A stretch of 64,000 bases of DNA, from NCBI GenBank assembly GCA_045661245.1, contig JAZRFH010000002.1, positions 655 to 64,654 of the forward strand, in the 5' to 3' direction. Positions 9,844 through 62,049 of the stretch are shown here, one piece after another (the stretch's first letter is position 1; each line of letters opens with the position of its first letter). The stretch is from Eubacteriales bacterium. GTDB taxonomy: Bacteria > Bacillota > Clostridia > Oscillospirales > CAG-272. Made by a program: the position numbers and the translations under genes. The notes under the pieces are model-generated. The model was not told where the DNA came from. It searched no databases and worked only from the letters and a program-made list of their open reading frames with translations.

Positions 9844-10221
9844 GTGACAAGGCAGAGAGAGGCGATACTTGAGGTAATTCGCTCCGATTGTGCCCATCAC
9901 ACCGCAGAGGAGATTTTTCTCCTGGCAAAAGAGAGGCTGCCCGGAATTTCAAGGGCGACTGTCTACAACAATCTTAAGACACTTGAGAACATGAGGCTTA
10001 TTCGGCGTATAACGGGCGACGGTTTATGTGACAGATACGACAGCTCATATATTCCGCACGGTCATTTGCTTTGCGAGAGGTGTGGCAAAGTCTGGGACTT
10101 TACAATCGACGGATTTGATGCTATAATAAATGATGCAATAAAATGTGACTTTTCTTCGTATGAATTAAAGGTCAGGCGAATATGCAACGACTGTGCAAAA
10201 AAAGAGTCGGCATCTGTATAA
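9844..10221 (+). CDS. perR: Fur-family metalloregulator, probably peroxide-responsive (PerR-like)
   Basis: 125 aa with a GTG start and an aaggag RBS. It has a winged helix ([13 protein letters not shown]) and a CxxC...CxxC structural Zn site. The PerR assignment rests on the rubrerythrin gene downstream and the Per-like boxes upstream. Confidence 0.75.
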
Positions 10222-10273
10222 TTTAAATCACAAGAATATAATAATAAAACATATTACCAAAGGAGTTTACAAA

Positions 10274-10807
10274 ATGAATCTTAAGGGCACCAAAACAGAA
10301 CAGAATCTTATGACAGCTTTTGCGGGCGAGTCGCAGGCAAGAAACAAGTACACCTATTTTGCATCGGTAGCAAAGAAAGAGGGCTATGAGCAGATAGCCG
10401 CTATATTCCAGGAAACCGCAGACAACGAGAAGGAGCACGCAAAGCTTTGGTTCAAGGCTCTCGGCGGTCTTGGTGATACTGCAGCTAACCTTCTTGCAGC
10501 AGCAGAGGGCGAGAACTATGAGTGGACTGATATGTATGATACCTTTGCTAAGGAAGCAGAGGAAGAGGGCTTTAAAGCTCTTGCATTCCAGTTCAGAGCA
10601 GTAGCGGCAGTTGAGAAGGCTCACGAGGAGAGATACAGAAAGCTCCTTTCTAACGTTGAGCTTCAGCAGGTATTTGAGAAGGCTGAAATGACTATGTGGG
10701 AGTGCCGTAACTGCGGTCACCTCGTAATGGGCACCAAGGCTCCCGGCGTTTGCCCTGTTTGCGCACATCCTCAGGCTTATTTTGAAGTAAGAAAAGAAAA
10801 CTATTGA
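10274..10807 (+). CDS. rbr: Rubrerythrin
   Basis: The N-terminus [26 protein letters not shown] and the [12 protein letters not shown] di-iron motifs match rubrerythrin. The C-terminus has a rubredoxin-type CRNCGH...CPVC motif. ATG 10274 has an aaaggag RBS. Confidence 0.9.
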
Positions 10808-10863
10808 TTAAAGTTAAATAAATCTATTGAATAGAAATCAAAAATAGTTTATAATACCCATTG

Positions 10864-10894
10864 GGGCTGAGTCGTTTTGGCTCAGCCCTGTTTT
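10864..10894 (+). terminator. Intrinsic terminator after rbr
   Basis: The stem pairs gggctgag with ctcagccc and is followed by tgtttt. Confidence 0.65.
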
Positions 10895-10910
10895 GATGTC
10901 GGAGGGGATT

Positions 10911-11603
10911 ATGAGAATTCTTATAGTTGATGATGAGGCTGAAATCAGGCGTGTGCTTGAGCTTGTGCTTAAAAATTCAGGATATGAAACCGTTTCGGTT
11001 GGTGACGGCTCCTCTGCGGTTGAGGTGATGAAGGAATCGCCTGATTTTGACCTTTGTATTATGGATATAATGATGCCGAATATGTCGGGAGTTGAGGCTA
11101 CGCGCGCAATAAGAAAATTCTCCTCTGTGCCGATACTCTTTCTTACCGCAAAATCCTTGCCGCAGGATAAGGTTGAGGCATACAGCTCGGGCGGCGACGA
11201 TTATATTGTCAAGCCCTTTCCGATGGCAGACCTTTGCCTTAAGGTTGAGGCTATGACGCGTAGGTATAATCTCTATTCGGTAAAGGAAATACAGTCGAGC
11301 GAGGCTGTACGCTTGCCCTCGGGTATATCGGTTAATTTTGACGAGCGCGAGGTAATGAAAAACGGCCAGAGAATTGAAATGCGCGATAAGGAGATGGACG
11401 TGCTTTTGTACCTTGTGAAAAACAGGGGCAGATGCGTAAGCTCGGACGAGCTGTATGAAAACGTTTGGGGCGAGATGCCACTGCCGTCGTCGGGCAATAA
11501 TATAACGGTACACATATTGAATTTGCGCCGAAAGCTTGAAGAAAACTTTGCATCACCAAGACTTATAAGAACTGTGTGGGGAAAGGGTTATCAGATTGAT
11601 TGA
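10911..11603 (+). CDS. OmpR-family response regulator
   Basis: It has a receiver domain (RILIVDDE...DLCIMDIMMP...LTAK) and a winged-helix output domain (RTVWGKGYQ). ATG 10911 has a ggagggg RBS. Confidence 0.9.
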   Translation: MRILIVDDEAEIRRVLELVLKNSGYETVSVGDGSSAVEVMKESPDFDLCIMDIMMPNMSGVEATRAIRKFSSVPILFLTAKSLPQDKVEAYSSGGDDYIVKPFPMADLCLKVEAMTRRYNLYSVKEIQSSEAVRLPSGISVNFDEREVMKNGQRIEMRDKEMDVLLYLVKNRGRCVSSDELYENVWGEMPLPSSGNNITVHILNLRRKLEENFASPRLIRTVWGKGYQID

Positions 11604-13032
11604 TTATTTAAAGAAATTTATCTTTGCACGCTTTCGCTCGCTTAAGCTCTCTATGTTTTATACATTGTTTTTAGGACTTGCCGTTGGCGTAGCTATGTAT
11701 TTTGCTATCAACGGTATCTGCGAAAGCTACATAAATAATAAATATCTGTCAGAAGAGTCTAGACAGTCAAGAGAGGAAAGGTATCTTGAGGATTTACAGT
11801 CCTACGTTGACGAGTACGCACTTAAGAGCACGGATATAGATGCACTTTCCGGCTGGGTGCGTGATAAGGGGCATCTTTACGTTATGATTTACAAGGATAA
11901 CGAGCTTGTGCTCGACTCGGGCAGCGCAGAAAAGGAGCCCTCGGACTCCGAATCGGGCGAGAATGAGGGTGAGCTACCCGAGGAAAAAGACGACACGGGT
12001 ATTACCGTTACCTTTCCCACCAAAGAAGCCCTTATTGAATATGCAAAGTCAAAAGGCACGTATCCGATAGAGATGCAGGACGGTGTACCCCTTCTTGTTG
12101 CAATGGTTGATTATACTCAATACTTTTACTATGACATTGCAAATATTGCAAGTCTTTTTTTGGCGGCAATAGCATTGATGCTTGTTTTAATGATGTATTC
12201 AAGCAGAATTACAAGCAGAATTACAAAGCTGGCAAAGCAGGTACGCATCTGTGCATTGGGTGAGATGGACAGAAAAATAAAAAGTGACCTGAAAAACGGA
12301 CGTGACGAAATCACTGACCTCGCTGATAACGTTGAAAATATGAGATGCTCAATGCTTGAAAATATCGCAAAGGAAAGAGAGGCGATAAACTCGAATACAG
12401 AGCTTATAACCTCGGTGTCGCACGATATAAGAACGCCGCTTACGGTCCTGCTCGGATATATCGACATAATGAAGGGACATACGGCCGATGCCGCTATGCA
12501 GGAGTATTTAGATGCGTCAGAAAGATGTGCGCTCAGGCTGAAAACTATGTCCGACGATATGTTCAACTACTTCCTCGTCTTCGGTGCGGATGTTGGAGAA
12601 TGTAATTTTGAAGATTACGATGCAGCAACACTGTTTGAGCAAATACTCTCCGAGAAGATACTTCTATTGCGTGAGCAAGGGTACACTGTTGATATACCAA
12701 TGCTCGATAAGCTACACAGCAAGCTTGACGGAATAACTGTAAGCACAGATGCGCCAAAGCTTATGCGTATTGCTGAAAACGTATTTTCAAATATTACAAA
12801 ATACGCTGATAAATCACACCCCGTGTCAATTAAAAGCAAACTAAAGGGAAATGAAATAACAGTAGATATTGTAAATAAAACTTTACATAAATCGAATAAG
12901 ATTGAAAGCAATGGCATAGGTATACGCACCTGCACTAAGCTTGCAGAGCTGCTTAATATTGATTTTGCACACAAGAGAGATGGAGATTTGTTTCGTGTGA
13001 CTCTTGTATTTAAGGTGAAGGGGCGTAAATAA
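11596..13032 (+). CDS. Sensor histidine kinase with two TM helices and a ~140-aa extracytoplasmic loop
   Basis: It has the H-box SHDIRTPLT and N/G-box-like motifs in the C-terminal HATPase region. It overlaps the response-regulator stop by 8 nt. The TTG start is uncertain. Confidence 0.85.
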   Translation: MIDYLKKFIFARFRSLKLSMFYTLFLGLAVGVAMYFAINGICESYINNKYLSEESRQSREERYLEDLQSYVDEYALKSTDIDALSGWVRDKGHLYVMIYKDNELVLDSGSAEKEPSDSESGENEGELPEEKDDTGITVTFPTKEALIEYAKSKGTYPIEMQDGVPLLVAMVDYTQYFYYDIANIASLFLAAIALMLVLMMYSSRITSRITKLAKQVRICALGEMDRKIKSDLKNGRDEITDLADNVENMRCSMLENIAKEREAINSNTELITSVSHDIRTPLTVLLGYIDIMKGHTADAAMQEYLDASERCALRLKTMSDDMFNYFLVFGADVGECNFEDYDAATLFEQILSEKILLLREQGYTVDIPMLDKLHSKLDGITVSTDAPKLMRIAENVFSNITKYADKSHPVSIKSKLKGNEITVDIVNKTLHKSNKIESNGIGIRTCTKLAELLNIDFAHKRDGDLFRVTLVFKVKGRK

Positions 13033-13941
13033 ATGTCTGATTTATCATTTGCCGTCTTAACGGACGAGCTGAGAAATGAACTTGTTTTTAAAGGTGATGT
13101 ATATTCTGACGACCTAGCAATGATGCTGGATAGCTTTCTTGAGCTTTCCCGAGAGGGCATTGAAGCCGCGGTAGCAATTAAATGCGGTTGCCTTTTGGTA
13201 AGAATTTTTGCGGACGGAGAATATAGCTTTGTTTCTCCGATAGAGCTTGAAGACGGAGCTTCAGTTGCTGATGCGCTTATACTTGTTCGTGACTATGCTA
13301 TGCGCCAGATGCTGCCTCTTATATTTACCGACGTTCCGCGCGCTGATATTGAGTATTATCAAAACTTTTTTAAAATGCCGGAGGCACGCGTATATCCTGA
13401 TGAGGACGATACGTTTTTCGTCAGTGTTTTTAGCGAGTGCGACGGCGTTGATAAGCCACCTAGCTTATATACTGAAAGACTTATTCTGGGTGAGATTTCA
13501 GAAGAGCATGTGCCGTCTTATGCAAGACTTTGCAGGGATAAAGACGTCAACAGATACTGGGGATATGACGTGTCGGCAGATAATAAAGAGGATACCGACG
13601 AATTTTTTCTTGAGGTCGCGAGCCGCGAGCTTGACATTTCACAGGCTATAACGCTTGGAATATTTTTTGATGGGGCACTGATTGGCGAGGCTGTTATATA
13701 TGCCTTTGATTTTACAGGCGGCGCATCATTTGGTATTCGTCTTTTGCCCGAATATCACGGCAAGGGCTTTGGCACTGAAGCACTCGGTGCAGTTATCTCC
13801 TATTCGCGTGATATTGGGCTTGATTATCTATGTGCCGACGTTATGCCGGAAAATACGAAATCTATTAAAATGATGGACAAATATTTCGACACGGGTCGGG
13901 AAAAGTGCGGAAAAATGCATTTTAAACTAAAGCTTAACTAA
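13033..13941 (+). CDS. Two-domain protein: unknown N-terminal domain plus a RimJ/RimL-type (Acetyltransf_3) GNAT N-acetyltransferase
   Basis: The C-terminal half reads TERLILGEI...RYWGYD...EYHGKGFGTEA...ENTKSIKMMDK, which fits the RimJ/L GNAT pattern. The ATG immediately follows the kinase stop with a 0-nt gap. Confidence 0.7.
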   Translation: MSDLSFAVLTDELRNELVFKGDVYSDDLAMMLDSFLELSREGIEAAVAIKCGCLLVRIFADGEYSFVSPIELEDGASVADALILVRDYAMRQMLPLIFTDVPRADIEYYQNFFKMPEARVYPDEDDTFFVSVFSECDGVDKPPSLYTERLILGEISEEHVPSYARLCRDKDVNRYWGYDVSADNKEDTDEFFLEVASRELDISQAITLGIFFDGALIGEAVIYAFDFTGGASFGIRLLPEYHGKGFGTEALGAVISYSRDIGLDYLCADVMPENTKSIKMMDKYFDTGREKCGKMHFKLKLN

Positions 13942-13979
13942 GTATATTTAAACAAATCAAAAAAAAGGGGGGGAGTGGC

Positions 13980-16571
13980 TTGAAAAATATAGTAGTAGGC
14001 ATACTTGCGCACGTTGATGCGGGTAAAACTACGCTTTCCGAGGCGCTCCTTTATACCTCGGGGGCTATTGAAAGACTCGGCAGGGTCGATAAGCGAGATG
14101 CCTTTCTTGATACACATTCACTTGAGCGCGAGCGCGGAATAACCATATTCTCAAAGCAGGCGATAATTGATACTCAAAGCTCACACGTAACACTTGTTGA
14201 TACTCCCGGACACGTTGACTTCTCCTGCGAAACCGAGCGCGCTCTCTCTATACAGGATTATGCAATACTTGTGATAAGTGCAGAGGACGGTGTGCGCTCG
14301 CATACGAAAACACTGTGGCAGATGCTAAGGGCAAGAAAAATACCGACCTTTATTTTCGTAAACAAGTGCGATATATCGGATAGGAGCCGTGACGAGCTAA
14401 TGGCTGAAATAAAGACTACTCTAACCTCGTTTGCGGTTGATTTCTCAGCCCCAGGTACGGATAGCTTTTTTGAAAACGTTGCATCCTGTGACGAGAGGTT
14501 AATGCAGGAATTTTTCGACACGGGTGCGGTAAATAATGCTGATATTGCTGTGTCAGTCGCATCCTCGCGCCTCTTTCCGTGTTACTTTGGTTCGGCATTA
14601 AAGCTTACGGGAGTCCGTGAGCTGCTCTTGGGTATTGACAGATATACAATACAAAAAGAATACTCCAGCACTATATTTGGTGCGCGGGTATTTAAAATCA
14701 CCCGTGATAAGCTTGGGCGCAGGCTCTGCTTTGCAAAAATAACGGGCGGCACCCTTGCACCCAAGGACGGTATAACAGTAAGGCTCGCGGGCGGTGAGGA
14801 GATTATCGAGAAAATAGAGGAGTTAAGGGTTTTCTCCGGTGAAAAATCAAAGCCTCAAAAGTTAGCCGTGCCGGGCACGGTTGTGGCACTTATAGGCCCT
14901 CAAAGCATAAGTGCGGGTATGGGGCTTGGATTTGAGGCAAGTGACGAGCCCGTACTCAGCCCCGTTCTTGATTACAGAATTATTTTGCCCGAGGGAGTAA
15001 GTGCGCACGAGATGTATGCGCGCCTTTTGGTGATTGCAGAAGAGGACCCTGCTTTAAATCTCAAGTTTGACCCAAGGCTTAGCGAGATACGCGTGAGCCT
15101 TATGGGAGAAATTCAGCTTGAGGTGTTAAAAAGGCTTGTTTTAGAACGCACGGGTGTAGAAATCGAGTTTGACGAGGGCTCTATTCTATATCGCGAAACC
15201 ATAGATAAAACGGTATTCGGTGCAGGGCATTTTGAGCCGCTGCGCCATTACGCAGAGGTGCATTTACGTCTTGACCCGCTACCCGAGGGGTCGGGTGTTG
15301 TTGCTTCGTCTGAGCTTTCACGCGAGGTTCTATCGCTTAACTTCCAGCGTCTTGTTATGACACATATTGAAGAGCGCACACACAGAGGCATATTGCTTGG
15401 CGCACCTCTCACAGACGTTGAGATAACTCTCGTTGGCGGTAAAGCGCATCTTAAGCACACCGAGGGCGGGGATTTCAGACAGGCTACCTACAGAGCCGTA
15501 AGGCAGGCCTTGCGTAAGGGCGGTAGCGTGATACTTGAGCCGACCTTTAATTTTAAAATTGAGCTGCCCGGTGAAAACCTCGGCCGTGCGCTTACCGATA
15601 TTGCAAATATGCACGGCACCGTTGACTTTACGGATACAGTGGGCGGCATCGCAGTGCTTGAGGGCAATTGCCCGGTATATACTATGCGCTCATATCCCGC
15701 CGTGCTTCGTGCCTATACACGCGGCTACGGTAAAATTGCCTTGACGGTCGGAAAATACGTGCCGGCTCACAATTCTGACGAGCTGGTGGCAAAATTCGGT
15801 TATGACCCCGATACTGACGAGCGCAATCCTTCGGGCTCTGTTTTTTGCCGTGCAGGTGCGGGCTATACTGTTCCTTGGTATGAAGCAGATGCGCTTATGC
15901 ACACCGGGCCCCAGGGGCAAGATAAGGAAGAGGTCAGCGAAGACGTACGCATTCCAAAGCGCGCCGCGGCAAAGGTGTATGGCGGCACTGCCGAAGAGGA
16001 TAAGGAGCTTATGCGCATCTTCGAGGCAACCTACGGCAAGATAAAGCCGCGCAAAGTTACAGAAAAGTTTGAGAACAAGGCAAAAACCGAGCCGAAACGA
16101 CGCCCCGTGTCAAAAAAACAACATCAAAACGAGTATTTGGTGCTTGATGGTTATAACGTTATCTTCGGCTGGGAAGAGCTGAAAAAGCTGGCTTTATCGG
16201 ATTTTTCTCTTGCCAGAGACGCCCTTGTGCGTATTGCCTGTAATTATGCCGCGATACGCCGCGTGTCCGTTATTGTAGTTTTTGACGCGTATAAGCGTGC
16301 GGGCGGTGAGGGTAGTGTCGAGCACCTCGGCCCTGTGACGGTTGTTTACACAAAGGAAAAGCAAACCGCGGACAGCTATATTGAGCGCACAACTTACGAG
16401 CTGGCAGACGATAATTTCGTACGCGTCGTAACGGGCGACCTTGACGAGCAGTTTATAATTCTCGGCAACGGGGCGTATCGCGTCAGCATCGACGAGTTCA
16501 GGCTTGAATGCGAGAGTGTAACGGGCGAGATATCCGAGCTTGCCGAAAAATACGGAAAAAACAGAAAATAA
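13980..16571 (+). CDS. Tet(M)/EF-G-like translational GTPase fused to a C-terminal YacP/Rae1-type NYN ribonuclease domain
   Basis: 863 aa. The G motifs are AHVDAGKT, RGITI, DTPGH and NKCD, and the protein is collinear with ribosomal protection proteins for about 640 aa. A Lys/Glu-rich linker follows. The C-terminal ~160 aa carry LVLDGYNVI, VVFDAY, TADSYIE and VVTGD, as in B. subtilis YacP/Rae1. The TTG start follows a ggggggag RBS. Confidence 0.8.
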   Translation: MKNIVVGILAHVDAGKTTLSEALLYTSGAIERLGRVDKRDAFLDTHSLERERGITIFSKQAIIDTQSSHVTLVDTPGHVDFSCETERALSIQDYAILVISAEDGVRSHTKTLWQMLRARKIPTFIFVNKCDISDRSRDELMAEIKTTLTSFAVDFSAPGTDSFFENVASCDERLMQEFFDTGAVNNADIAVSVASSRLFPCYFGSALKLTGVRELLLGIDRYTIQKEYSSTIFGARVFKITRDKLGRRLCFAKITGGTLAPKDGITVRLAGGEEIIEKIEELRVFSGEKSKPQKLAVPGTVVALIGPQSISAGMGLGFEASDEPVLSPVLDYRIILPEGVSAHEMYARLLVIAEEDPALNLKFDPRLSEIRVSLMGEIQLEVLKRLVLERTGVEIEFDEGSILYRETIDKTVFGAGHFEPLRHYAEVHLRLDPLPEGSGVVASSELSREVLSLNFQRLVMTHIEERTHRGILLGAPLTDVEITLVGGKAHLKHTEGGDFRQATYRAVRQALRKGGSVILEPTFNFKIELPGENLGRALTDIANMHGTVDFTDTVGGIAVLEGNCPVYTMRSYPAVLRAYTRGYGKIALTVGKYVPAHNSDELVAKFGYDPDTDERNPSGSVFCRAGAGYTVPWYEADALMHTGPQGQDKEEVSEDVRIPKRAAAKVYGGTAEEDKELMRIFEATYGKIKPRKVTEKFENKAKTEPKRRPVSKKQHQNEYLVLDGYNVIFGWEELKKLALSDFSLARDALVRIACNYAAIRRVSVIVVFDAYKRAGGEGSVEHLGPVTVVYTKEKQTADSYIERTTYELADDNFVRVVTGDLDEQFIILGNGAYRVSIDEFRLECESVTGEISELAEKYGKNRK

Positions 16572-16574
16572 AAG

Positions 16575-16625
16575 CCCCGAGGGATACCGAAGCTCAGCGC
16601 CAAGGTTTCTCGGGGATTTGTTTTT
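16575..16625 (+). terminator. Probable terminator after the GTPase-NYN gene
   Basis: A 7-bp stem pairs ccccgag with ctcgggg. The loop is long (27 nt). The sequence atttgttttt follows. Confidence 0.45.
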
Positions 16626-59076: not shown

Positions 59077-60430
59077 AGAGAAATTTATTTTACCCGTAAG
59101 GGATATAATATCACGCCTTTATCTTAGTGCTTATTACCCTGTGCTTGTGGGTGCGCTCGTCTTTTTTGCGCACGCGTTTGGCATAGAGCTTTACCTTGGC
59201 TGTATAAATATCGTATTAACCTCTTTGGGGCTTTTGTTTACGGGCAGGGCGCGGCCGCTTATATTTTTCACCGTCAGCTTTGCATATCAGATTTCGCGCA
59301 CAAATTCTCCCGGTATACCAAATCCGAGTGACTATTATTTCAGCTCGTGGCGCTTACCCGTCTTTATTGCGCTTGTTGCACTTTTTCTTATATCGGTTTC
59401 GGTTTATTCTGTGCGGGCGCGTCTTTTTGAGAATGCTCGGCTTTTAACACCGCTATTGTTGCCTATATCTTTACTTTCTTCGGCTTTTATTTTGAACGGC
59501 GCATTTTCGGATAGGTGGAGTGCTAAGAGCCTTGTTTTCGGCATCTTAGAGGTGCTTTGCTTCTCTGTAATTTTTATCTTTTTCTATCTCGCCTTGCTTC
59601 GCGAAAAAGAGGGGCTTGTAGATTATTTGACTTATTGCCTTGCCGCCGTGGCTGTCGTTATTTGCCTTGAGGTCCTGTGGTGCTATCTTGTCACAGATAA
59701 CCCCGCAAAGGAAAATATCGTTTTCGGCTGGGGCATATGGAATACCGCGGGTGCGTCGCTCACCATACTGCTCCCGGCTCTGCTTTACGGCTTTGCCGTT
59801 CGTGACCGCCGTTATTTGCCGGTTTTTACTCTCACCTTTTTATGCGCGATGCTCACACAGTCGCGTAATGCTCAGCTTTTCGGCATCTTAATAACCGTGC
59901 TATGTCTTTTTGTATTTGTGCTTTACGGAAAAAAGCGAGCCTTTGCGTGTTTTTCTTTAGTATTAGCGGCTTTTGCGGCTGTTTTAATATTTTTGGCTCT
60001 CGGGGATTTGGCAGCGGAATTTTTAACTCGGTTTTTTGACGACAACGGCAGAATAAAGCTCTGGCGTATGGGTATTGATAATTTTCTCTCTGCACCCATA
60101 TTCGGCGTCGGATTTTTCGGTGCGGATTTCGGCACCTTCTTTACCGCTGACTTTTTGCCTACGATGGCGCATAACACCTTTATCCAGCTGCTCTCTTCTA
60201 TGGGGCTATACGGGCTTTTTGCATATCTTTTTTACAGGGGTGCGACGCTCGTGCCGTTTATAAAAAAGCATTCGTTCTCAAAAACGATGCTCGGTCTATG
60301 CTGTCTTGTATTTTTACTTGAAAGCTTGCTTGACAATTTTGTATTCTTCTTTTTGCCGACTCTGCAATACACCGTTATTCTGGCATCAATTTATGCTACA
60401 GACACAGCGGGGCGGAAAAATTATCTTTGA
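59069..60430 (+). CDS. O-antigen ligase/polymerase (Wzy_C) family membrane protein
   Basis: 453 aa with about 10-12 TM helices and the Wzy_C-type motif TMAHNTFIQLLSSMGLYG. It overlaps the upstream stop by 8 nt. Confidence 0.7.
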   Translation: MIKEKFILPVRDIISRLYLSAYYPVLVGALVFFAHAFGIELYLGCINIVLTSLGLLFTGRARPLIFFTVSFAYQISRTNSPGIPNPSDYYFSSWRLPVFIALVALFLISVSVYSVRARLFENARLLTPLLLPISLLSSAFILNGAFSDRWSAKSLVFGILEVLCFSVIFIFFYLALLREKEGLVDYLTYCLAAVAVVICLEVLWCYLVTDNPAKENIVFGWGIWNTAGASLTILLPALLYGFAVRDRRYLPVFTLTFLCAMLTQSRNAQLFGILITVLCLFVFVLYGKKRAFACFSLVLAAFAAVLIFLALGDLAAEFLTRFFDDNGRIKLWRMGIDNFLSAPIFGVGFFGADFGTFFTADFLPTMAHNTFIQLLSSMGLYGLFAYLFYRGATLVPFIKKHSFSKTMLGLCCLVFLLESLLDNFVFFFLPTLQYTVILASIYATDTAGRKNYL

Positions 60431-60441
60431 AAGGAATAGGT

Positions 60442-62049
60442 ATGTCCGATTTAATCACTTCTATGCACAACGAAATAAAAAGGAGGCGCACCTTTGCGAT
60501 AATCTCGCACCCCGACGCAGGTAAAACAACGCTTACAGAGAAATTCCTGCTCTACGGCGGTGCTATTCAAAGTGCGGGCTCTGTAAAGGGTAAGCAGTCT
60601 GATAAGCACGCGGTTTCCGACTGGATGGATATTGAAAAGCAAAGAGGTATCTCTATCACCTCGTCTGTTATGCAGTTTGAGTATAACGGCTACTGCATCA
60701 ATATTCTTGACACGCCCGGCCACCAGGACTTCTCTGAGGATACCTACAGAACGCTTATGGCGGCTGACAGCGCGGTAATGGTTATAGACGCCGCAAAGGG
60801 TATTGAGCCGCAGACTCGTAAGCTCTTTAAGGTCTGCGCTATGCGCGATATTCCTATTTTTACCTTTATAAACAAGCTTGACCGTGAGGCTAAGGACCCG
60901 TTTGATTTGCTTGACGAACTCGAGAGCGAGTTCGGTATCGGCACCTATCCTATGAACTGGCCAATCGGCTGCGGTCAGAAGTTCCGCGGAGTTTATGACA
61001 GAAACGAAAGGCAAATACTTTTCTTTGACGACGCGCACAGGGGCCGTGAGCTTATACACGGAGTAAAGTGCGATATTACCGAAACAGAAAAGCTTGACGG
61101 GCTTATCGGTGAGAATATGCGCGAGGAGCTTGTTGAACAGATTGAGCTGCTTGACGGTGCGTCGTTTGACTTTGACCTTGAAAAGGTAAGGCACGGTAAG
61201 CTCTCGCCTGTATTCTTCGGCTCGGCTCTTAATAACTTCGGAATAGAGCCATTCCTTGAGCATTTCCTTGAAATGACTACCTCGCCACTGCCGAGATTTG
61301 CAGAGGGTGAGCTTATAGACCCGTTTGACGATAAATTCACTGCATTCGTATTCAAGATACAGGCGAATATGAATAAGGCGCACAGAGATAGAATTGCATT
61401 TATGCGTATCTGCTCGGGCAAGTTTGAGCGCGGGCGCGACTACTACCACGTTCAGGGTGCAAAATCCTTCCGCCTCTCCCAGCCTCAGCAAATGATGGCA
61501 GATGCCCGTGAGGTTATAGACGAGGCGTATGCGGGAGATATAATCGGCGTATTTGACCCCGGTATTTTCTCTATAGGCGACACTGTGTGCGAGAAGGGTG
61601 AAAAAACGCGCTTTGAGGGTATACCCACCTTTGCGCCCGAGCACTTTGCTATGGTAGAGCAGGTGGACTCTATGAAGCGTAAGCAGTTTGCCAAGGGTAT
61701 GAACCAGATAGCACAAGAGGGTGCGATACAGATATTCTTTGAGCCGAACTCGGGTCTTGAAAGAGTAATCGTCGGTGTTGTAGGCGTATTGCAGTTCGAG
61801 GTGCTTGAGCACAGACTCAAGAGTGAGTACGGCTGTGACCTCAGGCGCACGAATCTTAACTATCAGCAAATACGCTGGATTGATAACGAGGGGCTTGACC
61901 CCAAAACGCTTAAGCTCTCGCACGATACGAAATGGGTGCAGGACTTCAGAGGTAAAAATCTGCTTATTTTCACCAGTGAGTGGAGTATTCGCTGGGTGCT
62001 TGAGGATAACCCCGAGCTTAAGCTTTCCGAATTCAGTAAGAATGATTGA
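60442..62049 (+). CDS. prfC: Peptide chain release factor 3
   Basis: The motifs RRTFAIISHPDAGKTTLTEK, DTPGHQDF and NKLD, and the overall RF3 length, all fit. ATG 60442 follows an aaggaa RBS. Confidence 0.95.
   Translation: MSDLITSMHNEIKRRRTFAIISHPDAGKTTLTEKFLLYGGAIQSAGSVKGKQSDKHAVSDWMDIEKQRGISITSSVMQFEYNGYCINILDTPGHQDFSEDTYRTLMAADSAVMVIDAAKGIEPQTRKLFKVCAMRDIPIFTFINKLDREAKDPFDLLDELESEFGIGTYPMNWPIGCGQKFRGVYDRNERQILFFDDAHRGRELIHGVKCDITETEKLDGLIGENMREELVEQIELLDGASFDFDLEKVRHGKLSPVFFGSALNNFGIEPFLEHFLEMTTSPLPRFAEGELIDPFDDKFTAFVFKIQANMNKAHRDRIAFMRICSGKFERGRDYYHVQGAKSFRLSQPQQMMADAREVIDEAYAGDIIGVFDPGIFSIGDTVCEKGEKTRFEGIPTFAPEHFAMVEQVDSMKRKQFAKGMNQIAQEGAIQIFFEPNSGLERVIVGVVGVLQFEVLEHRLKSEYGCDLRRTNLNYQQIRWIDNEGLDPKTLKLSHDTKWVQDFRGKNLLIFTSEWSIRWVLEDNPELKLSEFSKND

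Follow-up and report, generated by a model that had tools for sequence, protein, structure and literature searches.

Standalone Rae1 (YacP) is a translation-dependent mRNA endonuclease (PMC13622287), and its NYN_YacP domain (PF05991) has also been found joined to translational GTPases in Clostridia. Here we describe a fusion of this kind, encoded on the plus strand at 13980-16571 of a 64,000-nucleotide stretch (hereafter the window) of contig JAZRFH010000002.1, from an uncultured Eubacteriales bacterium (assembly GCA_045661245.1). Atkinson 2015 (BMC Genomics, PMC4342817) already reported a Tet-NYN_YacP fusion in Clostridia, with R. albus 7, E. eligens, E. rectale, B. proteoclasticus and C. cellulolyticum among the members in Additional file 8 and further members in C. 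lentocellum, L. phytofermentans, C. thermocellum and two strains of D. hafniense. The authors' guess was a role in antibiotic resistance via RNase activity. Matelska 2017 (Nucleic Acids Research, PMC5499597) noted a TetM-NYN_YacP fusion in 'some Clostridia' and termed its role unclear. The novelty of the fusion was thus overrated in an earlier note on this DNA, made from the sequence alone; a functional characterisation, which would have counted against that note, did not turn up in the literature searched, where a design known since 2015/2017 is yet functionally uncharacterised. Our query has the same architecture and lineage as the published proteins and is a further member, from an uncultured Clostridia genome. 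It is 49% identical to R. albus 7 YP_004106010 over its full length (865 columns), and the GTPase signatures GHFEPLRHYAEVHL and KHTEGGDFRQATYRA, invariant in the subfamily, are common to the listed E. rectale, C. thermocellum and D. hafniense proteins. What the analysis adds is the non-Tet status of the family, its EF-G-like and family-specific domain IV, two tether modules and its abundance in gut Clostridia.

The fusion has its NYN fold and every catalytic acidic residue in common with B. subtilis Rae1/YacP (PF05991; structures 5MQ8/5MQ9), and of both proteins a ribosome-dependent action on RNA is expected. Rae1, however, is a free protein (181 residues in the 5MQ8/5MQ9 chains) that binds ribosomes transiently and is usually encoded beside rlmB, whereas in the fusion the NYN domain is the C-terminal end of an 863-residue GTPase, in another genomic context and with moderate identity to Rae1. 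Cleavage of mRNA in the A site, as the earlier note had it, is an outdated view of Rae1: that model was withdrawn by its authors and replaced in 2025 by a 'tail-end/collision' model. Work of 2025-26 places the cut 12 nt upstream, on stalled or collided ribosomes, and on collided ribosomes Rae1 creates substrates for transfer-messenger RNA (tmRNA) (PMC13622287). According to the 2026 preprint, a ribosome-bound structure of Rae1 is nonexistent because binding is transient (PMC13622287).

On the GTPase side, TetM and TetO have in common with the fusion a five-domain body with a short G' region, and are its closest full-length sequence matches. They end in a C-terminal extension of ~26 residues, whereas the fusion has ~265 residues comprising conserved modules and the NYN domain. 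EF-G has the fold, the G motifs and the domain IV tip histidine in common with the fusion, but the nuclease is found in the fusion only. The fusion may also be likened to collision or stall nucleases and to decay factors coupled to a translational GTPase, a comparison drawn partly from PMC6120710 and PMC13622287. With SmrB of E. coli and Cue2/NONU-1 of eukaryotes the fusion would share the concept of mRNA cleavage at stalled or collided ribosomes, those proteins using the SMR fold, which is unrelated to NYN. With Hbs1-Dom34, Ski7 and GTPBP1 it would share the involvement of a protein resembling a translational GTPase in decay at stalled or collided ribosomes. Unlike systems of the SmrB, Cue2 or Hbs1 type, in which GTPase and nuclease are separate proteins, the fusion is one polypeptide.

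The fusion gene and its family

The interval 13980-16571 (+) is one uninterrupted open reading frame (ORF) of 863 codons with a TTG start and a TAA stop, and the N-terminus of its product, MKNIVVGILAHVDAGKT, agrees with that of homologues. Pfam recognised six domains, all above gathering score; the segments between domain V and the NYN domain were delimited by conservation.

13969-13975 (+): Shine-Dalgarno-like GGGGGAG, 4 nt 5' of the TTG start, by direct sequence reading
13980-14648 (+): G domain, amino acids 1-223 (Pfam GTP_EFTU at 4-223, E=5.5e-50)
14682-14918 (+): domain II, amino acids 235-313 (Pfam EF-G_D2 at 28.6 bits, cut-off 27)
14961-15170 (+): domain III, amino acids 328-397 (Pfam EFG_III at 29.2 bits, cut-off 27)
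15180-15521 (+): domain IV, amino acids 401-514 (Pfam EFG_IV, E=7.1e-19)
15531-15773 (+): domain V, amino acids 518-598 (Pfam EFG_C, E=1.5e-13)
15795-15902 (+): post-domain-V module, amino acids 606-641, GYDPxxDxxNPxxSVFCxxGAGxxVPWxExxxxMH (conservation 0.77-0.87, n=122 sequences)
15903-15959 (+): variable acidic spacer, amino acids 642-660 (conservation 0.41 among close and 0.09 among deep sequences; length varies)
15960-16055 (+): conserved helix module, amino acids 661-692, core EEDKELMRIFEATYGK (conservation 0.80-0.85)
16056-16133 (+): variable basic tether, amino acids 693-718, net charge +4 (length highly variable in distant members)
16134-16568 (+): NYN_YacP/Rae1-type endoribonuclease domain, amino acids 719-863 (PF05991 at 720-860, 135.8 bits against 24.6, E=1.9e-39)

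The single frame, the fused architecture and every motif quoted for it before (AHVDAGKT, RGITI, DTPGH, NKCD, LVLDGYNVI, VVFDAY, TADSYIE and VVTGD) were all borne out. The G domain carries G1 AHVDAGKT, G2 RGITI, G3 DTPGH (with the catalytic His78), G4 NKCD and G5 GSALK, and domain II is a confident beta-barrel in the AlphaFold2 model. The best sequence matches of the whole protein in the PDB are TetO 4v6v (1.1e-71) and TetM 3j9y (~1e-71), followed by EF-G, while for the last 154 residues the match is B. subtilis YacP/Rae1 5MQ8/5MQ9 (72.8 bits, E=3.5e-19).

Residue invariance was scored over 132 full-length ORFs of the family, taken from both genomes and metagenomes; for greater depth, conservation was scored over 76 cluster representatives with no more than 39-56% identity to the query. 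The G motifs, predicted to be intact, are so: K16 (P-loop), T55 (G2), D74 and H78 (G3) and D131 (G4) are invariant in the 132 ORFs. The same is true of the NYN residues D723, N726, D769, D798, E802 and D820, so that the acidic residues expected of the nuclease are not missing. In the 76 deep representatives the catalytic residues of both GTPase and NYN domain are at least 95% conserved. Counted through the 5MQ8/5MQ9 alignment, D723 corresponds to Rae1 D7 and D798 to Rae1 D81, and the Rae1 D7N D81N double mutant is catalytically dead (PMC10351889). Both halves of the protein, together with the tether modules, are under strong purifying selection.

Two stringent peptide patterns specific to the fusion family, run over the genomes of GTDB species, located it in at least 101 species; counts of loci given here rest on the best 80 of these 101. 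All 80 are Clostridia, Eubacteriales or Oscillospiraceae metagenome-assembled genomes (MAGs), largely from ruminant gut. A single fusion ORF of 855-888 amino acids is present in 77 of the 80 loci, which speaks against a hidden stop or frameshift splitting the gene. Among the three short copies, two (L037 and L062) are clipped at the start of the locus and the third (L067) aligns with residues 1-858 in one frame by tblastn. In L067 the ORF caller splits the copy at ~9480, leaving a 433-amino-acid C-terminal ORF; an in-frame stop or a sequencing error in the MAG may be responsible. Both halves are also present in 76/80 metagenome loci, or 76/78 where the contig is long enough to judge. Since the same single ORF recurs across GTDB and metagenome loci, the fusion is not an assembly artefact.

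The family is large. Scanning metagenomes with the two domain IV signatures returned at least 600 contigs, many from human gut. A HMMER search of residues 596-863 against 1.84 billion cluster representatives gave 2445 matches at E<=1e-3 and 243 at E<=1e-30, amounting to ~240 family clusters at 50% identity; the top 150 matches are mostly 820-1156 amino acids long, and the same domain architecture was found in all 120 homologues listed (120/120). An exact-sequence contig look-up with the query protein had no match on record. Proteins of 165-275 amino acids that match the NYN part were considered as standalone Rae1s and rejected as such: most of them keep pieces of the tether motifs and for that reason look like gene fragments, though P0234 and P0261 may be either. 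Relatives of ~700-750 amino acids that lack the NYN domain occur at 8690-10801 of L096 (QZLN01000057.1) and at 4412-6664 of L111; they have the same GTPase signatures and the post-domain-V module and end before the NYN domain, with no NYN ORF within the locus. The MAG JAZOMD01 holds two full-length copies (L020 and L079) that are 67% identical, either paralogues or a binning mixture.

A GTPase distinct from Tet proteins, and its conserved tether

The closest hidden Markov model (HMM) to the fusion is NCBIfam NF012153 tet_protect, which scores 400.1 bits against a curated cut-off of 775. The query also falls far below the cut-offs of the Tet subfamily HMMs: TetM/W at 287.8 against 1100, Tet(M) at 242.5 against 1420, Tet(Q) at 240.2 against 1425 and Otr(A) at 298 against 900. 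The EF-G model TIGR00484 reaches 243.2 bits against 659, and the remaining EF-G models are likewise below their cut-offs.

Domain IV differs from that of Tet proteins at its tip. In an alignment with TetO, the loop III residues Y506-Y507-S508-P509, which we take to be those reaching the tetracycline site, are replaced by A489-H490-L491-K492. Cryo-electron microscopy studies of TetM and TetO by Donhofer, Li and Arenz (of 2012, 2013 and 2015) are said to place the Tet loop III residues in contact with the tetracycline pocket. H490 of the fusion aligns with the EF-G tip His573 of T. thermophilus, and H417, H423, H490, K492 and H493 of domain IV are invariant in the 132 ORFs. The family motifs of the domain are GAGHFEPLRHYAEVHL in the loop I region and GGKAHLKHTEGGDFRQATYRA in loop III. 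Loop I is Tet-like in length, and a Tet-like 'DFR' framework is present; the GGRGQ segment of EF-G loop I is absent, leaving a 4-residue gap relative to T. thermophilus EF-G, and the fusion has GHFEPLRHYAEV. With domains IV-V alone, T. thermophilus EF-G (2.9e-20) is a better match than TetM/O (~1e-16). Foldseek returned ribosome-bound EF-G and TetM as structural neighbours, with EF-G structures first (~1e-49) and TetM at rank 45. Because of the HMM scores, the loop III replacement, the EF-G-like tip, the make-up of loop I and the Foldseek ranking, the GTPase is best classed as a distinct subfamily of the EF-G/Tet lineage, and the fusion family as something other than a bona fide Tet resistance family. 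A tip with H490 would fit a domain IV that touches the tRNA-mRNA or decoding region, and does not fit one that displaces a drug.

The distinction bears on annotation. RefSeq uses two names for members, 'TetM/TetW/TetO/TetS family tetracycline resistance ribosomal protection protein', which many of them bear, and 'translation factor GTPase family protein', as seen on the PLSDB records NZ_CP143948.1 (A. rectalis) and NZ_OY725736.1 (Monoglobus) and on MBQ7363349.1. The tetracycline resistance name is not one that NCBIfam's own cut-offs would justify, and names of the Tet type could yield false resistance calls and inflate counts of the gut resistome. The nuclease half may be miscounted as well. 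The 2026 survey of Rae1, which found it in >87% of Firmicutes by hmmsearch at E<=1e-10, applied no length filter (PMC13622287); for this reason fusions of ~860 amino acids were probably counted there as ordinary Rae1.

The segment between GTPase and nuclease had been described as a Lys/Glu-rich linker at residues 640-715. This holds for the variable stretches, 642-660 being acidic and 693-718 basic, but the linker is not uniform, for residues 661-692 are strongly conserved. Residues 606-641 and 661-692 are in fact as conserved as the catalytic domains. The post-domain-V module is family-specific and persists in the 76 deep representatives, as it does in the NYN-less relatives; its C623 and W633 are invariant in the 132 ORFs. 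Of the helix module, the core ELxxIFExTYG is retained in the deep set, with E676, F681 and Y685 nearly invariant. In ten distant or long representatives the linker measures ~120 to 240 amino acids and the domain order is constant (10/10). The two conserved modules have no match in Pfam or the PDB. AlphaFold2 modelled the GTPase body and the NYN domain with predicted local distance difference test (pLDDT) values mostly of 70-90; residues 614-715 had values for the most part under 50, the exceptions being short helices at 633-639 and 671-685 (the latter at low pLDDT), and the predicted template modelling score (pTM) was 0.45. As the modules are conserved yet lack an intramolecular fold, they are expected to be motifs for contact with a partner, which would presumably be the ribosome or RNA.

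The helix module also holds an in-frame AAGGAG-CTT-ATG at ~16002-16013 (codons 675-678), which places Met678 inside the conserved motif. Among 76 copies that have the Lys, 67 use the AAGGAG hexamer, where codon usage would predict ~46%, an enrichment seen in the clade of the query. An internal start at M678, yielding a free NYN product, was rejected: the spacing is merely 3 nt, and Lys and Met are missing in 42/123 members. Such a start does not appear to be a feature of the family as a whole.

Possible modes of action

Because both halves and the tether modules are constrained, the simplest reading is that the EF-G/Tet-like body provides stable, GTP-controlled docking and the NYN domain does the cutting. 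A nuclease brought to ribosomes by a GTPase, as the earlier note supposed, is still the most plausible idea. We give an even chance to the proposal that the GTPase of the fusion delivers its nuclease to stalled or collided ribosomes for cleavage of their mRNA. In its GTP form the five-domain body would dock where factors bind the ribosome, at the sarcin-ricin loop, stalk base and A site, in the mode of EF-G and TetM, with domain IV reaching the decoding region. Its targets would be ribosomes unable to proceed, either stalled with an accessible A site or, as the rotated trailing member, part of a collided pair. The NYN domain, held on a ~120-residue tether with two conserved modules for ribosome or RNA contact, would cut the mRNA either where it borders that ribosome or in the stretch between two collided ones, and GTP hydrolysis would release the factor. 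The truncated mRNA would then turn the ribosome into a substrate for trans-translation, as for standalone Rae1. In this scheme we infer ribosome binding, the RNA target, the ribosome state that is recognised and the coupling to GTP hydrolysis.

Several points weigh against this proposal. One is geometric: the factor site lies on the A-site and mRNA-entry side of the ribosome, whereas Rae1 cuts on the mRNA-exit side, so the scheme would demand either a tether that extends around the ribosome or a factor bound to the trailing one. The AlphaFold2 model (pTM 0.45) gives the NYN domain no defined placement relative to the body. The NYN-less relatives indicate that the GTPase module can function without a nuclease. 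No neighbouring gene, smpB/ssrA and genes of ribosome-associated quality control (RQC) included, is conserved family-wide, and the surroundings give no hint of ribosome rescue. Finally, a full-text literature search, outside which Leroy 2017 (EMBO J) and Condon 2018 (RNA Biol) fell, found no functional study of any member.

A rotated, translocation-blocked ribosome is the state that EF-G normally recognises. A trailing rotated ribosome of a disome would resolve the geometric conflict because its mRNA entry faces the cleavage point. It is conceivable, if doubtful, that the EF-G-like body is a GTP-gated collision or stall sensor on the trailing disome ribosome and that the Rae1 domain cuts the mRNA between the two ribosomes.

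If this sensor reading is true, the fusion would be the first nuclease with ribosome access directly controlled by a translational GTPase, and a one-polypeptide bacterial counterpart of mRNA decay coupled to Hbs1, Ski7 or GTPBP; in some Clostridia it may then be the only Rae1 activity. The fusion also bears on how Rae1 recognises ribosomes, being a natural joining of a Rae1 domain to a ribosome factor that can be locked. Locking with GDPNP or by a His78 mutant, as for EF-G and TetM, could reveal a Rae1-type domain on its substrate, and the locked fusion would tell which of three places the nuclease gets to: the A site, the mRNA entry or an adjacent ribosome. The family is present in the culturable species C. 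thermocellum, R. cellulolyticum and E. rectale, and genetic tools exist for the first two.

The alternative that survives best is a ribosome-directed rRNA nuclease, with the NYN domain cutting 16S or 23S rRNA either for maturation or for inactivation and turnover of damaged or surplus ribosomes. From the GTPase centre, rRNA (the sarcin-ricin loop, H69 and h44) is far closer than the mRNA exit, the basic tether could bind rRNA, and an adjacency of rlmB and rae1 is visible in PLSDB records. This role was proposed by Atkinson 2015 (PMC4342817), and it was the neighbouring genes mrnC and rlmB that first tied NYN_YacP to the processing of rRNA and tRNA (Matelska 2017, PMC5499597). We nevertheless consider it unlikely, as Rae1, the sole characterised member of PF05991, cuts mRNA and not rRNA, and the fusion has no conserved linkage to rRNA operons or rRNA maturation genes.

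Also unlikely is a genuine protection protein against tetracycline or another A-site antibiotic whose NYN domain would play an accessory part, such as the removal of mRNAs from ribosomes stalled by the drug. The Tet family does supply the top full-length HMM and PDB matches (NF012153 at 400 bits, TetO/TetM at ~1e-71) and one of the RefSeq names ('TetM/TetW/TetO/TetS family...'), and the length of loop I and the 'DFR' framework of domain IV are Tet-like. Rae1 biology is tied to the ribosome-targeting antibiotics erythromycin and chloramphenicol, and in the clade of the query the fusion sits behind a VanRS-like two-component system. Yet the fusion scores 400 bits, about half of the 775 that NCBIfam demands, and stays far under the TetM/W, Tet(M), Tet(Q) and Otr(A) thresholds, Y506-P509 has given way to A489-H490-L491-K492, and domains IV-V favour EF-G over Tet. 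The gene is moreover chromosomal with clade-conserved synteny, on no mobilizable plasmid or real phage and with no mobile-element genes seen around it. The gene is thus not a simple acquired tet determinant, as had been suspected from its surroundings.

Ribosome-dependent RNases of the RelE type are common among toxins. A toxin or abortive-infection effector whose triggered RNA cutting on ribosomes would halt translation, an option floated in the earlier note, could draw further on the MAG with two diverged fusion copies and on the speculation of a 2026 preprint that Rae1 acts against phage mRNAs (PMC13622287), but it is very improbable and the option finds no support: PADLOC had no match for the protein or its immediate neighbours, no adjacent small antitoxin candidate or other immunity-type partner is conserved across the family, the neighbours are ordinary chromosomal genes in synteny that is stable within clades across a wide spread of Clostridia, and the apparent phage records are bacterial DNA.

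Genomic neighbourhood and mobility

Packed directly 5' of the fusion is a block of three genes (10893-13941, +) followed, beyond the fusion, by a possible terminator.

10893-11603 (+): OmpR-type response regulator (Pfam)
11596-13032 (+): histidine kinase (Pfam)
13033-13941 (+): GNAT protein of 302 amino acids, Acetyltransf_3, N-terminal 145 amino acids without assignment (Pfam)
16575-16625 (+): possible terminator, inverted repeat CCCCGAG...CTCGGGG then ATTTGTTTTT, by direct sequence reading

In the source organism the block is probably co-transcribed with the fusion, and this arrangement probably gives inducible expression. Of 79 GTDB loci, 54-57 have the block linked to the fusion, either co-directional or convergent with it, a strong linkage that has survived an inversion; of 80 more distant loci just 3 have it nearby. 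The association is on this account clade-specific and not family-wide. A family-wide functional partnership with the response regulator, histidine kinase or GNAT protein was rejected on the same count, the GNAT protein being generic. A Fur/PerR-like regulator and a rubrerythrin are encoded at 9844-10890, 5' of the block. The pair is followed by a strong terminator-like hairpin with a 13-bp stem (10862-10890), and accompanies the block in 19-33 related loci. The terminator at 16575-16625 is tentative because its loop is long; the sole flag in a terminator scan near the 3' end of the fusion was a minus-strand hairpin at 16595-16572.

Elsewhere in the window, we found no second NYN gene, no rlmB near the fusion, and no matches in tRNA, tmRNA and Rfam scans. 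The only other translational GTPase is RF3 (RF3_C, 4.2e-45) at 60334-62046 (+), which is unrelated. PADLOC had no match for the fusion, the GNAT protein or the MgtC protein. An HD protein two genes 3' of the fusion has weak Cas3-HD matches alone (E=1.2e-05, 23.6 bits), with no other Cas-type protein among those tested.

The fusion family is chromosomal and is carried by neither phages nor mobilizable plasmids. Around the fusion we saw neither Tn916-like genes nor those of another mobile element. Plasmid carriage was rejected, full-coverage matches being limited to large records typed as non-mobilizable. Phage carriage was likewise rejected: two INPHARED records of 'Bacteriophage sp.', L161 (MT835563.1) and L162 (MT835514.1), are bacterial chromosomal DNA, UNVERIFIED virome scaffolds that carry AddAB-like, FeoB, GltX, GlpK, GreA, PurL and DapF genes. 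On MT835514 the fusion lies immediately 5' of gltX, the first gene of the gltX...yacP operon of B. subtilis. PLSDB also holds 'plasmid' records of C. difficile and B. subtilis (e.g. NZ_CP149721.1 and NZ_AP028965.1) that carry the housekeeping rlmB-rae1 pair; these look like chromosomal fragments deposited as plasmids.

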